A stretch of DNA of 64,000 nucleotides, from NCBI GenBank assembly GCA_009837885.1, contig VXSP01000045.1, positions 325,526 through 389,525 of the forward strand. The letters are read 5' to 3'. The notes under the pieces were generated by a model, which was not told where the DNA came from, made no database searches, and saw only the letters and a program-made list of their open reading frames with translations. This stretch comes from Holophagales bacterium. GTDB lineage: Bacteria; Acidobacteriota; Thermoanaerobaculia; Multivoradales; Multivoraceae. Positions 3-63,955 of this stretch are shown here, one piece after another. Each line of letters opens with the position of its first letter. Positions within the stretch are counted from its first letter, which is position 1. A program made the translations under genes and the position numbers.

Positions 3-764
3 GAAGCGGCGCGCCGCTTCGAACGCGCCCTGGGACTCCGGCCGTCGTACTGGGCGGCGCGCGTCCGGCTCGGCAACGCCCTGCTAGCCGCGGGTAACGC
101 GAGTGGCGCCGAGGCGGCGTTCCGCGCGGTGCGGGCCGCGTCTCCCGGCACGCCCTGGGGCGAACTCGGATTGGGCAAGACGGCCCGCCGCCAAGGCGAG
201 CCCGAGACCGCGGCTCAACATCTGCGCACGGCGCTGGCGCTCGATCCGGCCCATCGCGAGACCCGCTATCTGCTGGCGATGACGGAGCGGCAGCTCGGCA
301 ACTCCGAGCGCGCCGGAGAACTGTTGGCCGGCCTGGAGGCCGCGGAAGTCTCCAGCCTCGACGATCCGATGCTGGAGGCCGTGTTCGAACTCGTCCGGGA
401 CACGCAGACCATGATCCGGACCGCGAACCAGCGGTTGGCCGAAGGGAACCACGTCGCCGCGGGGCGCCTCTACCGCGAGGTGCTGCGGCTCGATCCGGAT
501 TCCTACGACGCGCACCTCAACCTGGGCGTGCTCCACGGTCTGGCCGACCGCAACCAGGAGGCCGCCGCGGCGCTGGAGAGGGCGCTCGAGATCGATCCGG
601 ACCGGGCCGACGCCTACGCGCTTCTCACGATCGCCTACATCAGGACCGGACGTGCCGAAGAAGGCTTGCGTCAGTTGGAAAAGGCGCTCGAGTTGGACCC
701 CGATCATCCTCGTGCGCGAGAGATTCTCCGCAGCCTGGGCGGCAGTTTGGAACAGTTGCGCTAA
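3..764 (+). CDS. TPR-repeat protein, 5' end outside the window
   Basis: The frame of track ORF 129..764 stays open back to nt 3 (EAARRFERALGLRPSYWAARVRLGNALLAAG...). It shows repeated 34-aa TPR-like helices ending in ALELDP/LRLDP/LEIDP. Confidence 0.8.
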   Translation, partial: EAARRFERALGLRPSYWAARVRLGNALLAAGNASGAEAAFRAVRAASPGTPWGELGLGKTARRQGEPETAAQHLRTALALDPAHRETRYLLAMTERQLGNSERAGELLAGLEAAEVSSLDDPMLEAVFELVRDTQTMIRTANQRLAEGNHVAAGRLYREVLRLDPDSYDAHLNLGVLHGLADRNQEAAAALERALEIDPDRADAYALLTIAYIRTGRAEEGLRQLEKALELDPDHPRAREILRSLGGSLEQLR

Positions 765-61970: not shown

Positions 61971-62201
61971 GGGGCCGGCAGTGTACCGCCGGAAGCTTCG
62001 GCTGCACCCGCCCGTTCCGGGCCTCAGGGGAGAGGGTCCCAGCGGGCTGGGCGGCGTAGACGTGCGTGCAGGCCCAACAGTGCATCGTCCTGGAGCCTTT
62101 GGCGGCGCAGTCTTGGCGGGTTCTGGTCCTTGTCGACCGTCTAGCCACCGGGAACTCATGCACCGACCTTGTGTTCTAACAGAATACTGTAAATTTAGTG
62201 A

Positions 62202-63260
62202 GTGCTGCTCCTGAGCCAGAGACCCTTGCGAGACAGAGATGGCGATCGGGCGCTCTTCACGGGTCGAGAGCCTGAGCTCGATCGCCTACTGCGAGCGTCC
62301 CGAGTTGGATTCAACGCCATCGTCTTGGGTGATCGAGGTGCAGGTACTAGCTCGTTGCTGGCTCGACACGCTTCCCACCTCGAAGGCCGGGGCGGTCGAG
62401 TGTGCCTCGTGACGGGAACCGCGGTCGACTCGATGCGTGGGCTCGCGGAAGCGATCCGACTCGCTGCCGAGGGAAGGCGGACTGTCGGCCGCGTTCCACC
62501 GGCTCAGGAACGGGGAGAGGACGAGCAGTCGGTACTCGGCAGGTTGATCCACGGTGACCCGCAGTCCTTGGGCCGGCTGCGTGACGTGTGCTTCGAGTTG
62601 GAGGAGTCCAACAACAGTGGGCGGCTGACCGTCATTCTCGACAATGTGCTGCGGCCAGAGATGGTCCACGGGCTCTTCGGCCGGTGCCGGGACGAAGTCT
62701 GGGAGTTACCAACGCGATGGGTGATTGCGGGGCGAGCAGATCGGCGCAGCCAGTATCTGAAGCCGCCGGCCGACTCCTTCTTCGACACTGAGGTGTACGT
62801 CGGAGCTCTTGAACCGGGAGTAGCGCGAGAACTGGTCCTTGCGCGCCTGAAGTCAGCCTTGCCCGAAGAGCGTGTCGACGCGGAACGAATCCGGCGCCGG
62901 CTTGACCAGATCGTGGAGCGCGGCGCGGGGAATCCCCGGCGGCTCTTGTCAGCGGCCAGGGACGTGCTCCTTAGTACCCAGGAGGAAGCGGAGAGCGGCG
63001 ACTCTGCCCTCGCCGCCGCTGCGTCGCTAGGCAAGACGGAGTTTGCTGCACTGCACTACTTGATGGACAGGGGCCCCGCGAGCGCGTCTGACTCGGAGTT
63101 CCAGGCAGACCTTGGAGTGACCCGTTCGCGTGCCACCCAGGTCCTGAAACGACTCGAAGACTCGAATCTCGTCACGGTCTTCGAGACGCGAACCGGCCGC
63201 GGCAGGCCGCGGAAGCTCTATCGTTCGATCGGCAGCGCGAGTGCGGAGGATCCTGCATGA
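62202..63260 (+). CDS. ORC/Cdc6-like AAA+ protein with degenerate P-loop and C-terminal winged helix
   Basis: 352 aa. FTGREPELDRL precedes the P-loop GDRGAGTSSL (Thr where the Walker-A Lys is expected). Walker-B-like LTVILDNV. Sensor-2/lid-like GAGNPRRLLSAARDVL (compare Cdc6 GDAR). C-terminal wHTH: ADLGVTRSRATQVLKRLEDSNLVTV. More A/T-ending codons than its neighbours. Confidence 0.6.
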   Translation: MLLLSQRPLRDRDGDRALFTGREPELDRLLRASRVGFNAIVLGDRGAGTSSLLARHASHLEGRGGRVCLVTGTAVDSMRGLAEAIRLAAEGRRTVGRVPPAQERGEDEQSVLGRLIHGDPQSLGRLRDVCFELEESNNSGRLTVILDNVLRPEMVHGLFGRCRDEVWELPTRWVIAGRADRRSQYLKPPADSFFDTEVYVGALEPGVARELVLARLKSALPEERVDAERIRRRLDQIVERGAGNPRRLLSAARDVLLSTQEEAESGDSALAAAASLGKTEFAALHYLMDRGPASASDSEFQADLGVTRSRATQVLKRLEDSNLVTVFETRTGRGRPRKLYRSIGSASAEDPA

Positions 63261-63955
63261 GTCGCCACCTCCTCGTGTGGCTGCTCCAGACCCACGCCTT
63301 CGACGATGCTTCGCCACGCCACGACACCCGAGGCTACGAGCTGCCTACGGTACTCGGCGACCAGACTCTTCGGTACGTCCACGGCGGCATGGCTCCTCGT
63401 ACGCTGCCATGGCCGGGGCTGGAAGGAGTCGCTCCCGGCCAGAAGGGGCCAGCCGACTTTGGCCTGTCCTCGGCTTGGCCGCCGCAGCGACCGCTGCGTG
63501 CCGAGCGTCGACCAGTGACGACGACGCGGGAGGAGGTGATGGCGAACGTCTATGCGGCGTTCGGTTGGCGTGGAAGTCGCGAAGAGGGCGACGAACGGGT
63601 CGTTGTCCTGTCTGTGCGGACGCCGCCGGGCCTTCGGGACGTCCGGATCGACCACGGATTCGTGGAGCATGTGGCCAGGCACGCGAATCGCGGTGCCTTC
63701 GCGAACTACGTTTTGCCAACCCTGAAGGAACCCCATGAGGTCTGGTTGACGCACGTAGGTTCCAGTAGGGGTGGGGCCTTTCGGCATCACTTTCTTGCGG
63801 CTTTCGATGATGGAGTGACCGCGGTTGTCGTCGTGGAGCCCGGCGAGGCGCCGGTTGCTTGGAACTTCTTCCCCGTAAGGCGCCGGACGGATGTCCGGAA
63901 ACGGCGAAAGGGCATGCTCCTCTACTCTCGGCGCCAAGAAGGCGGGGAGGGCTGA
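63257..63955 (+). CDS. Putative PBECR/RelE-fold nuclease-like protein (hypothetical)
   Basis: ATGA overlap with the upstream stop. An alternative internal start is ATG 63539, behind GGGAGGAGG. The C-terminal 138 aa (RIDHGFVEHVARHANRGAFANYVLPTLKEPHEVW...AVVVVE....VAWNFFP) resemble the H..H...ip..l..Pd.V pattern of phage Barnase-EndoU-ColicinE5/D-RelE-like nucleases. Confidence 0.4.
   Translation: MSRHLLVWLLQTHAFDDASPRHDTRGYELPTVLGDQTLRYVHGGMAPRTLPWPGLEGVAPGQKGPADFGLSSAWPPQRPLRAERRPVTTTREEVMANVYAAFGWRGSREEGDERVVVLSVRTPPGLRDVRIDHGFVEHVARHANRGAFANYVLPTLKEPHEVWLTHVGSSRGGAFRHHFLAAFDDGVTAVVVVEPGEAPVAWNFFPVRRRTDVRKRRKGMLLYSRRQEGGEG

Follow-up and report, generated by a model that had tools for sequence, protein, structure and literature searches.

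Pairing a DNA-binding or NTPase regulator with a BECR-fold ribonuclease (RNase), and exchanging the effector, is a known general grammar of bacterial conflict modules. Panacea (PanA) domains are hyperpromiscuous antitoxin domains, where the upstream partner is conserved and the downstream toxic partner is exchanged. BREX systems carry an inactive STAND/ORC-Cdc6 protein, BrxB, and an active ORC/Cdc6-clade ATPase with a wHTH (winged helix-turn-helix) domain, BrxC. In type II toxin-antitoxin systems with BECR RNases (RelE/ParE, including the ATPase-associated ptuXYZ; PMC11980606), the genes overlap in a bicistronic unit and the DNA-binding gene comes first. MuF polymorphic toxins and MuF/portal-PBECR fusions have an N-terminal virion domain followed by a C-terminal module (PMC5512222, PMC5576092), and MuF-type toxins normally carry a downstream immunity open reading frame (ORF) (PMC5576092). 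Here we describe a horizontally acquired two-gene cassette, gene 1 and gene 2, at the end of a 64,000-nucleotide stretch of DNA from a sponge symbiont, Holophagales bacterium (contig VXSP01000045.1, assembly GCA_009837885.1; the window). Gene 1 encodes a degenerate Orc1/Cdc6-like AAA+ protein, and gene 2 a predicted RNase of phage type that carries the N-terminal peptide of an ATPase (Table 1).

As in type II toxin-antitoxin systems, the cassette is bicistronic and overlapping with the DNA-binding gene first. It is also patchy and prone to horizontal transfer, its second gene often decays, and it is probably autorepressed from a conserved operator at its promoter. It differs from these systems in that the upstream protein is AAA+-like and 352 residues long rather than a small antitoxin, gene 2 belongs to the phage PBECR2 family rather than to RelE/ParE, and most second genes of the family encode an ATPase. 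Residues ~50-232 of gene 2 are homologous to the MuF toxins and MuF/portal-PBECR fusions and keep their His and Thr/Ser pattern. In place of the MuF or portal domain, however, gene 2 has a 46-residue peptide from an unrelated ATPase, and it lies in a chromosomal, non-phage context, with no downstream immunity ORF, cotranscribed with an Orc1-like wHTH gene. Archaeal Orc1/Cdc6 proteins (2qby, 2v1u, 1w5s, 1fnn) and PF01637 'Walker-type ATPases' (2qen, 2fna) are only 11-20% identical to gene 1. Unlike Orc1/Cdc6, gene 1 matches no ORC/Cdc6 Pfam model, lacks the Walker A Lys and the Walker B Glu, and occurs in bacterial hosts, in a mobile cassette with no origin context. Compared with BREX, it is here the wHTH-bearing protein that is degenerate; no PglZ, methyltransferase or other BREX genes were present at the cassette, and the PADLOC BREX models were unmatched. 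The fold is unrelated to Panacea, and the gene 1 family showed a single exchange, in which PBECR2 took the place of the ATPase. Searches of the literature and PADLOC returned no description of the cassette. Its new elements are a Walker-dead Orc1/Cdc6-like first gene, a paralogous ATPase as the default partner, a defined operator, and a phage virion toxin that was captured in frame after a retained peptide.

Table 1. Features of the cassette and its promoter region, and the complete plasmid-borne copy. Nucleotide positions are those of the window unless another accession is given.
Feature	Position (nt)	Residues	Strand	Remarks
Promoter/operator patch (predicted)	62169-62201		+	From comparative conservation
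-35-like TTGTGT	62169-62174		+	In promoter patch
CTAAC	62176-62180		+	In promoter patch
Degenerate palindrome core ATACTGTAA	62184-62192		+	One mismatch to family consensus TTACNGTAA
-10-like TAAATT	62190-62195		+	-12 to -7 from GTG; in promoter patch
Right arm TTTAGTGA	Ends at -1		+	In promoter patch
Gene 1	62202-63260	352 aa ORF	+	GTG start
AAA+ core of gene 1		~19-200	+	Orc1/Cdc6-like; AlphaFold model
Degenerate Walker A, GDRGAGTSS	62328-62354	43-51	+	Thr49 at P-loop Lys position
Walker B-like strand, VILDNV	62631-62648	144-149	+	Asp retained, Asn for catalytic Glu
Helical lid of gene 1		~201-276	+	AlphaFold model
Family-invariant motifs of gene 1	62673-62948	158-167, 188-195, 243-249	+	LFGRCRDEVW, PPADSFFD, GNPRRLL
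C-terminal winged helix of gene 1		~277-345	+	AlphaFold model
Winged-helix domain	63030-63236	307-319, 332-340	+	Recognition helix TRSRATQVLKRLE; wing GRGRPRKLY
Gene 2	63257-63955	232 aa ORF	+	ATG start; chimeric, putative effector, translationally coupled to gene 1
N-terminal peptide of gene 2	63257-63394	1-46 (core 1-30)	+	Core MSRHLLVWLLQTHAFDDASPRHDTRGYELP; inherited from the family's ATPase partner; proposed docking segment
Pre-toxin segment of gene 2	63404-63634	50-126	+	PWxGLxGVAPGQKGPADFGLS..WPP.RPL.AER..., then helix and strands
PBECR2 domain of gene 2	63635-63925	127-223	+	Pfam PF18810; predicted metal-independent endoRNase
pFiD188 cassette	L095:5004-7090 = NC_021080.1 41383-43469			Gene 1 and ATPase partner, complete

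The two ORFs overlap by the four nucleotides ATGA, and 45 nt separate the end of gene 2 from the end of the window, all as given in a first-pass annotation made from the letters alone. The 352-residue reading of gene 1 from its GTG start is considered right because homologues of 340-370 aa, which begin ML[FQL]LSQRPL, align from residue 1. Gene callers in several assemblies called the gene at only 275-286 aa.

A one-genome-per-species scan gave 209 confirmed relatives of gene 1, the best 80 of which were fetched; counts of partners and operators refer to 81 distinct loci. Most relatives are found in the Actinomycetota (Acidimicrobiia, Solirubrobacterales, Nakamurella, Rhodococcus). The closest belong to Candidatus Multivorans (Acidobacteriota), and because the next-closest, at 42-46% identity, come from sponge-associated Acidimicrobiia, the relationships suggest cross-phylum transfer within sponge microbiomes. 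At NCBI the window protein is labelled 'hypothetical protein [Holophagales bacterium]'. The usual partner is a P-loop ATPase of ~340-355 aa with intact motifs (GxxGSGK[ST] and hhhhDDTDR); in most loci it overlaps the end of gene 1 by four nucleotides, as gene 2 does in the window. This ATPase is paralogous to the AAA+ and lid domains of gene 1 (hhalign probability 96.8%, E 2e-10). It was intact in 57/81 loci and disrupted in 12/81; PBECR2 partners accounted for 4/81, a further 4/81 had no partner, and in 4/81 the contig ended. The same gene 1 and partner pair occurs in distant family members and in the plasmid copy, and no third gene was conserved across the family loci. PBECR2 partners with the 4-nt overlap were found in L012-L014, L086, L087, L089 and L091. 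The pairing of an ATPase-like protein with a nuclease, which the first-pass annotation had singled out, is therefore tightly coupled and co-inherited in several loci, but it is not the family norm. The PBECR2 chimera is limited to the window's Acidobacteriota clade, as a clade-specific replacement. The suggestion that further partners might be missing past the end of the window did not hold, as the extended contig added none common to the relatives.

The N-terminal 46 residues of gene 2 aligned with a set of 50 ATPase partners (hhalign probability 81%, E 1.2e-5). A 34-residue hidden Markov model built from ATPase partners only, run against a set of 2,769 proteins, ranked five PBECR2 partners directly after the ATPase partners (E 2e-7 to 4e-3; window protein, E 3.9e-3). 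One higher match, in L080, was read as a read-through ORF of gene 1 and its ATPase partner; MuF-type proteins in the set were not matched. The remainder of gene 2 has other relatives. In a profile search of 1.84 billion representatives, residues ~49-224 aligned to the C-termini of larger proteins (P0079, E 7.5e-64; P0080, E 4.8e-60; P0081 and others; identity 57%), and the N-terminal parts of these are Phage_Mu_F, Portal_Mu or tape-measure (TMP_3) domains. No Phage_Mu_F domain was matched in gene 2 itself. These comparisons make gene 2 a chimera of the N-terminal peptide of the ATPase partner and the C-terminal toxin module of phage MuF/portal fusions. The phage origin of the module is drawn from the MuF, portal and tape-measure fusions in metagenomic proteins, because an IMG/VR pattern scan and a tblastn search of INPHARED phages for the PBECR2 module gave no match. 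The pre-toxin segment was co-inherited with the nuclease domain from these fusions, and it is the best conserved part of gene 2 (amino acid divergence 0.22-0.24, against 0.36 in the PBECR2 domain).

A RelE/Barnase-like nuclease domain had been proposed for the end of gene 2, and profile matching agrees. The Pfam PBECR2 model, which represents a BECR-fold family, matched at 52.7 bits against a gathering threshold (GA) of 27.1 (E 6.1e-14), over profile positions 23-119 of 120. BECR active sites combine a His in the N-terminal helix with a C-terminal Thr/Ser (PMC5512222). Gene 2 fits this pattern by alignment, with His138, in the helix FVEHVA, and Thr165 as the candidate active site; R176 and R217 are also invariant. 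His138 was invariant, and position 165 was Thr or Ser, in 14/14 homologues and in five phage-type relatives. A sequence search of the PDB with gene 2 gave no match.

Ten full-length homologues of gene 2 (62-98% identity) keep the whole 232-aa frame. Substitutions over residues 51-94 were distributed 0.15/0.16/0.33 across the three codon positions, and third-position changes also predominate in the PBECR2 domain of the homologues at 62-98% identity. This pattern indicates purifying selection on gene 2, and since substitutions peak at its third codon position, the long ORF is the coding one. Met95 was considered as an internal main start and rejected, as it is not conserved and residues 51-94 evolve as coding sequence. 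The strongly Shine-Dalgarno-like GGAGGAGG lies directly before the in-frame Met95 ATG (63529-63541), and versions of 139-143 aa were called in some assemblies (P0076, P0078, L089); a short gene 2 isoform without the putative docking peptide may exist. An antisense ORF (63218-63937, 239 aa) was rejected as a gene because the sites that vary least coincide with its third codon positions. Gene 2 also contains a terminator-like hairpin with a T-run after it (63688-63714); it is probably meaningless, since the one found equals the chance expectation (1.1).

Upstream of gene 1, the family shares an operator-like palindrome. Exact copies of TTACNGTAA occurred 40 times in the 897 kb of the 81 loci, and 39 of these lay 15-40 nt upstream of a gene 1 start. 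The element thus precedes gene 1 in 39/81 loci, mostly at -18 or -21 (18-21 nt). In many cases it forms the middle of a longer palindrome of ~29 bp, CTAAC-N5-TTACNGTAA-N5-GTTAG, that reaches the start codon and whose right half overlaps a TAnnnT -10-like hexamer. The palindrome is intact in the close relative L086 (TCACaaaaTTTACAGTAAAtttcGTGA, directly before the ATG) and in the plasmid pFiD188 cassette (TTACAGTAA). In the window, a small palindrome had been noted at 62179-62190 (ACAGAATACTGT). As a 4-bp inverted repeat it is not significant alone, but it forms part of the degenerate copy of the family-conserved element.

One clade has an alternative palindrome, GTAGCTGCTAC, and its recognition helix also differs (SRQRAQQA). 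This covariation of helix and operator, a single phylogenetic event, fits a palindrome read by the gene 1 wHTH, and we infer that the gene 1 protein would bind DNA at this site. A scan for the sigma-70 consensus found no promoter site, so the promoter call is taken from comparative conservation. There is no space for a Shine-Dalgarno site, and the gene 1 mRNA is therefore probably leaderless or nearly so. From the geometry of palindrome, -10 box and start codon, the operon would be leaderless and repress itself. The Multivorans loci L006, L007 and L009 have, in addition to the start-proximal palindrome, a related one (CACCAAATTTACAGTGAATTTGGTTG) further upstream, ~65-90 nt from gene 1, which suggests two operator sites there.

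Comparison of congeneric genomes showed that the cassette lies at a recurrent chromosomal site, between COX2-GFO-glycosyltransferase-methyltransferase-LLM on one side and PSD1-DUF1501 on the other. Identity is 76-94% for the flanking proteins but no more than 54-62% for gene 1. At this site L006-L009 carry the ATPase partner, intact in L008 and decayed in L006, L007 and L009, and the window, L012-L014, L086, L087 and L089 carry the PBECR2 chimera. The chimera is also present in L091, a 2.5-kb contig whose flanks lie outside it, so that its site is not confirmed. The different states indicate rapid turnover at one chromosomal site. In a neighbour-joining tree, PBECR2-paired gene 1 sequences formed two clades with 100% bootstrap, plus one member within the ATPase-paired group; as the deep nodes of this tree are unresolved, it is compatible with one swap followed by recombination and with several swaps. 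The second gene is often lost and the first retained, which by analogy resembles toxin-antitoxin decay.

Small remnants of the second gene were also seen. After deletion of the ATPase body, an ORF of 24-64 aa that encodes the N-terminal peptide alone remains in six loci (L007, L009, L020, L023, L026, L037). It begins 3 nt before the gene 1 stop, is still coupled to gene 1, and carries ..LLxxLQxxHAFDxxPxRHDLG.YHV...

An AlphaFold model of gene 1 from 32 homologues was confident (predicted local distance difference test, pLDDT, 86), and showed three domains on a single chain: AAA+ core, helical lid and C-terminal winged helix. The Orc1/Cdc6 layout read from the letters was thus borne out, and the best structural matches were Orc1/Cdc6 proteins on origin DNA (2v1u, 2qby). 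Sequence models gave less. Pfam matches were sub-threshold only (AAA_16, 23.1 bits against GA 32.6; nSTAND1, 17.4 against 27.1), no ORC/Cdc6 family model in Pfam was matched, NCBIfam returned nothing relevant, and a PDB sequence/profile search gave only local P-loop and wHTH matches (ORC4, E 0.1). All the motifs previously listed for gene 1 (F.GRE.EL, GAGTSS, the D-N Walker B and GNPRRLL) are present, the first as FTGREPEL at residues 19-26 and the last in the sensor-2 position of the lid. Pfam MarR, MarR_2 and TrmB matched residues 276-341, all below threshold, where the model has helices at 298-304 and 308-320 and strands at 324-329 and 337-342. Invariant columns in the 32-sequence alignment (A2) were F159, G160, R163, W167, P189, A190, F193, F194, P245 and R246. 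The invariant motifs are retained even in lineages without the ATPase partner, and window gene 1 keeps FGRxRDEVW, PPADxFFD and PRxLL together with the wHTH motifs SASD, TRxRxxQV and GRGRPRKLY.

Gene 1 has neither the canonical Walker A (GxxGxGK[ST]) nor the canonical Walker B (hhhhDE). Across the family, the Walker-A Lys position is K in 23 loci, R in nine and V/S/I/M/T/L in 20, with K/R in the more distant relatives and V/I/S/M/L/T in the closer ones; the second acidic residue of Walker B is variable family-wide. Gene 1 of L008, L010, L015 and L017 lacks the Lys and is still paired with an ATPase, so the loss predates the nuclease partner and is a trait of the whole subclade, older than the swap. 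The first-pass annotation had taken the altered P-loop to suggest a nucleotide sensor or switch; given its age and subclade-wide occurrence, the substitution provides no evidence for a special sensor role in the window pair. Gene 1 is better regarded as a predicted DNA-binding regulator and adaptor that is unlikely to hydrolyse ATP. A phage collection searched with the Rhodococcus gene 1 homologue (L045) contained no relative. Two unusual gene 1 calls were noted: that of L014 (L014:6001-6723) is N-terminally truncated and aligns from residue 112 only, and that of L087 (L087:6001-7320) is 439 aa long with an 87-residue N-terminal extension, probably an artefact of the start-codon call.

An abrupt change of composition had been reported at the start of the cassette, and it stands at third codon positions. 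GC content at these positions (GC3) was 0.72 in both genes, the lowest in the window, against 0.88±0.046 in 41 other ORFs (minimum 0.78; z ~ -3.5). The GC3 of gene 1 and gene 2 is foreign to the genome. The bulk GC of the two genes (0.646-0.660), on the other hand, is only modestly under the window average and unexceptional, as other 1-kb bins are equally low.

These data give, in our judgement, an even chance that the locus is a self-contained, horizontally mobile, autoregulated two-gene cassette of toxin-antitoxin or abortive-infection type with a swapped effector. The gene 1 protein would repress its own leaderless operon by binding the ~29-bp palindrome over the -10 box, and would hold the downstream protein through the N-terminal ~30-46 residue peptide of that protein. 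The tethered partner would in most of the family be the AAA+ ATPase, which is paralogous to gene 1 and catalytically intact. In the Acidobacteriota clade of the window, the pre-toxin segment and PBECR2 module have taken the place of the ATPase body in situ, behind the retained, putative docking peptide. Loss, titration or triggering of the gene 1 protein, by phage infection, element loss or stress, might then free the RNase to cleave cellular or invader RNA, leading to growth arrest. Recurrent decay of the second gene and the absence of a MuF-type immunity ORF point to gene 1 as the restraining partner. No small immunity ORF was found downstream of gene 2 (in L001, a convergent gene comes after 130 nt of intergenic DNA), so that no candidate neutraliser other than gene 1 remains.

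More tentatively, and with rather more doubt than confidence, the 209 or more loci may together form an unrecognised conflict or toxin-antitoxin family, in which an Orc1/Cdc6-like repressor, nucleotide-dead or nucleotide-dependent, tethers an exchangeable effector by a docking peptide, and which is Actinomycetota-wide and was transferred into sponge-associated Acidobacteriota. If the toxin-antitoxin model is right, it would define a widespread two-gene family that lacks annotation (its proteins now carry the labels 'hypothetical', 'ATPase AAA' or 'ATP-binding protein'), for which a cis element is ready and Rhodococcus fascians pFiD188 offers a tractable host, and Orc1/Cdc6-like proteins would have a non-replicative role in bacteria as repressor-adaptors of a toxic partner. 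A host cassette would have exchanged part of its second gene, in frame and after a peptide of ~46 residues, for a phage-delivered toxin module. Such a natural swap would pin down the interface as well as the second gene's role as effector, and the protein-protein interface that it predicts could be reused for tethering other effectors. The cassette would also illustrate cross-phylum gene flow in sponge microbiomes.

Several points weigh against the toxin-antitoxin reading. A 352-residue, three-domain 'antitoxin' is atypical, and the toxin logic is extrapolated from one swap because the 'effector' of the ancestral cassette, an ATPase, shows no obvious toxicity. That the proteins are toxic, cleave RNA, bind DNA or defend against phages is predicted from sequence. 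For gene 2, an AlphaFold model from a 14-sequence alignment was unusable (pLDDT 40.8); the order of its secondary structure elements fits a BECR fold but is unreliable, and since the structure could not be modelled, fold and active site are assigned from profile and pattern matches. The operator of the window is degenerate, with one mismatch, a left arm shorter by 1 nt and a GTG start. In 73% of 73 loci gene 1 had a lower GC3 than its flanks (p 2e-6), which speaks for the reading, but the neighbouring ORFs were chosen for high, coding-like GC3, and this biases the difference. The pairing had not been recognised as a named system in the first-pass annotation, and PADLOC-DB v2.0.0 gave no system match: gene 1 matched only Csa3, at E 0.009 over the wHTH, and gene 2 matched nothing. 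Residence in defence islands, which the first-pass annotation named as a check, was not seen as a general signal among the 132 immediate neighbours at 73 loci, counted without a matched control, because these were mostly housekeeping genes (139 Pfam families; integrase 3, ResIII 3, DNA methylase 2).

An alternative is a STAND/Avs-type immune sensor under positive control, in which gene 1, with or without its partner, would respond to a cue from an invader by switching the effector on instead of restraining it, the N-terminal peptide recruiting it to an oligomerised sensor on DNA. We think this unlikely. The window pair lacks an intact NTPase site and with it any obvious switch, it has neither repeat nor sensor domains, and no defence-island enrichment among the immediate neighbours and no PADLOC system match were seen; loss of the second gene with the first kept fits a costly, restrained effector better. 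It is less probable still that the locus is a decaying relic, with a dead ATPase, a chance fusion to a prophage remnant, and gene 1 persisting as an orphan transcription factor. The degenerate Walker A and B, the degenerate window operator and GTG start, the pseudogenised partners at the same site in the congeners L006, L007 and L009, and the missing N-terminus of L014 gene 1 are what such decay would produce. A relic would not, however, be expected to keep an intact chimera with its 4-nt overlap in at least 10 distinct sequences at 62-98% identity, third-position changes that predominate over residues 51-94 and the PBECR2 domain, two 100%-bootstrap clades and a third lineage of PBECR2-paired gene 1, and the family-invariant gene 1 motifs.

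The strong conservation of residues 50-126, which lie outside the aligned PBECR2 match and are common to MuF, portal and tape-measure fusions, could instead reflect a decoy. The captured MuF module would then interfere with Mu-like phages, for example by upsetting the assembly of heads or portals or by titrating away a factor of the phage, and catalysis would be dispensable; in phage Mu itself, the PBECR domain of MuF is catalytically inactive, and RNA binding is predicted for it (PMC5512222). Such a role is very improbable, since His138 and Thr/Ser165 are invariant in 14/14 homologues and in the phage relatives, the virion-anchoring MuF and portal domains are absent, and no relative was found in cultured phages or IMG/VR. 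We give hardly any credence to a replication initiator of Orc1/Cdc6 type with its origin, whose palindromes would be sites like origin recognition boxes in an integrated element. In archaeal oriC-orc1 arrangements the initiator sites lie directly upstream of the gene, as the palindrome does here; a further copy lies ~65 bp upstream in L006, L007 and L009, and the best structural matches to gene 1 are initiators on origin DNA. No integrase, replicon or mobile-element genes are conserved around the cassette, though, which sits between housekeeping genes at a conserved chromosomal site. Cumulative GC skew has no turn at the cassette, the ATPase site is degenerate, and a palindrome that covers the -10 box and abuts the start codon has the geometry of an operator.

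Beyond the window clade, the pair is found on pFiD188, a linear virulence plasmid of the cultured strain Rhodococcus fascians D188, where it adjoins Phd/YefM-RelE and RES toxin-antitoxin modules and is labelled only 'ATPase AAA' and 'ATP-binding protein'. Other loci adjoin HipA, PIN-Phd or Fic/HNH/SNF2 genes, which is anecdotal, and one neighbouring ORF we take to be AbiEi-like. The ATPase partners gave P-loop-local mad3/mad8 matches only in PADLOC; membership of MADS/BREX was rejected, as these matches cover the P-loop only and no further genes of these systems are conserved.

PSD1 comes directly after the cassette in L086 and L087. In L001, outside the window and ~130 nt past gene 2, the minus strand (L001:10829-12177) encodes two proteins, an unrelated one of 326 aa that matches nothing in Pfam or PADLOC and an XRE-type HTH protein of 116 aa with a weak CapH-like PADLOC match (E 9e-7). 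This pair lies between gene 2 and PSD1, in the window lineage only; it is absent in L006-L014, L086, L087 and L089, and a second small insertion may have occurred here, at a site that varies. A final observation concerns P0080, the portal-fragment-PBECR2 fusion in L090 that is the second-closest relative of the C-terminal module of gene 2. A 70-aa ORF next to it was considered as an immunity gene and rejected, as it is Arg-rich and has no relative near the cassette. The patch around P0080 (L090:2983-10722) is chromosomal and contains two TIR genes of ThsB-like type, a phage tail chaperone (DUF1799) and a Uma2 endonuclease, and it looks like a prophage remnant or a defence patch.

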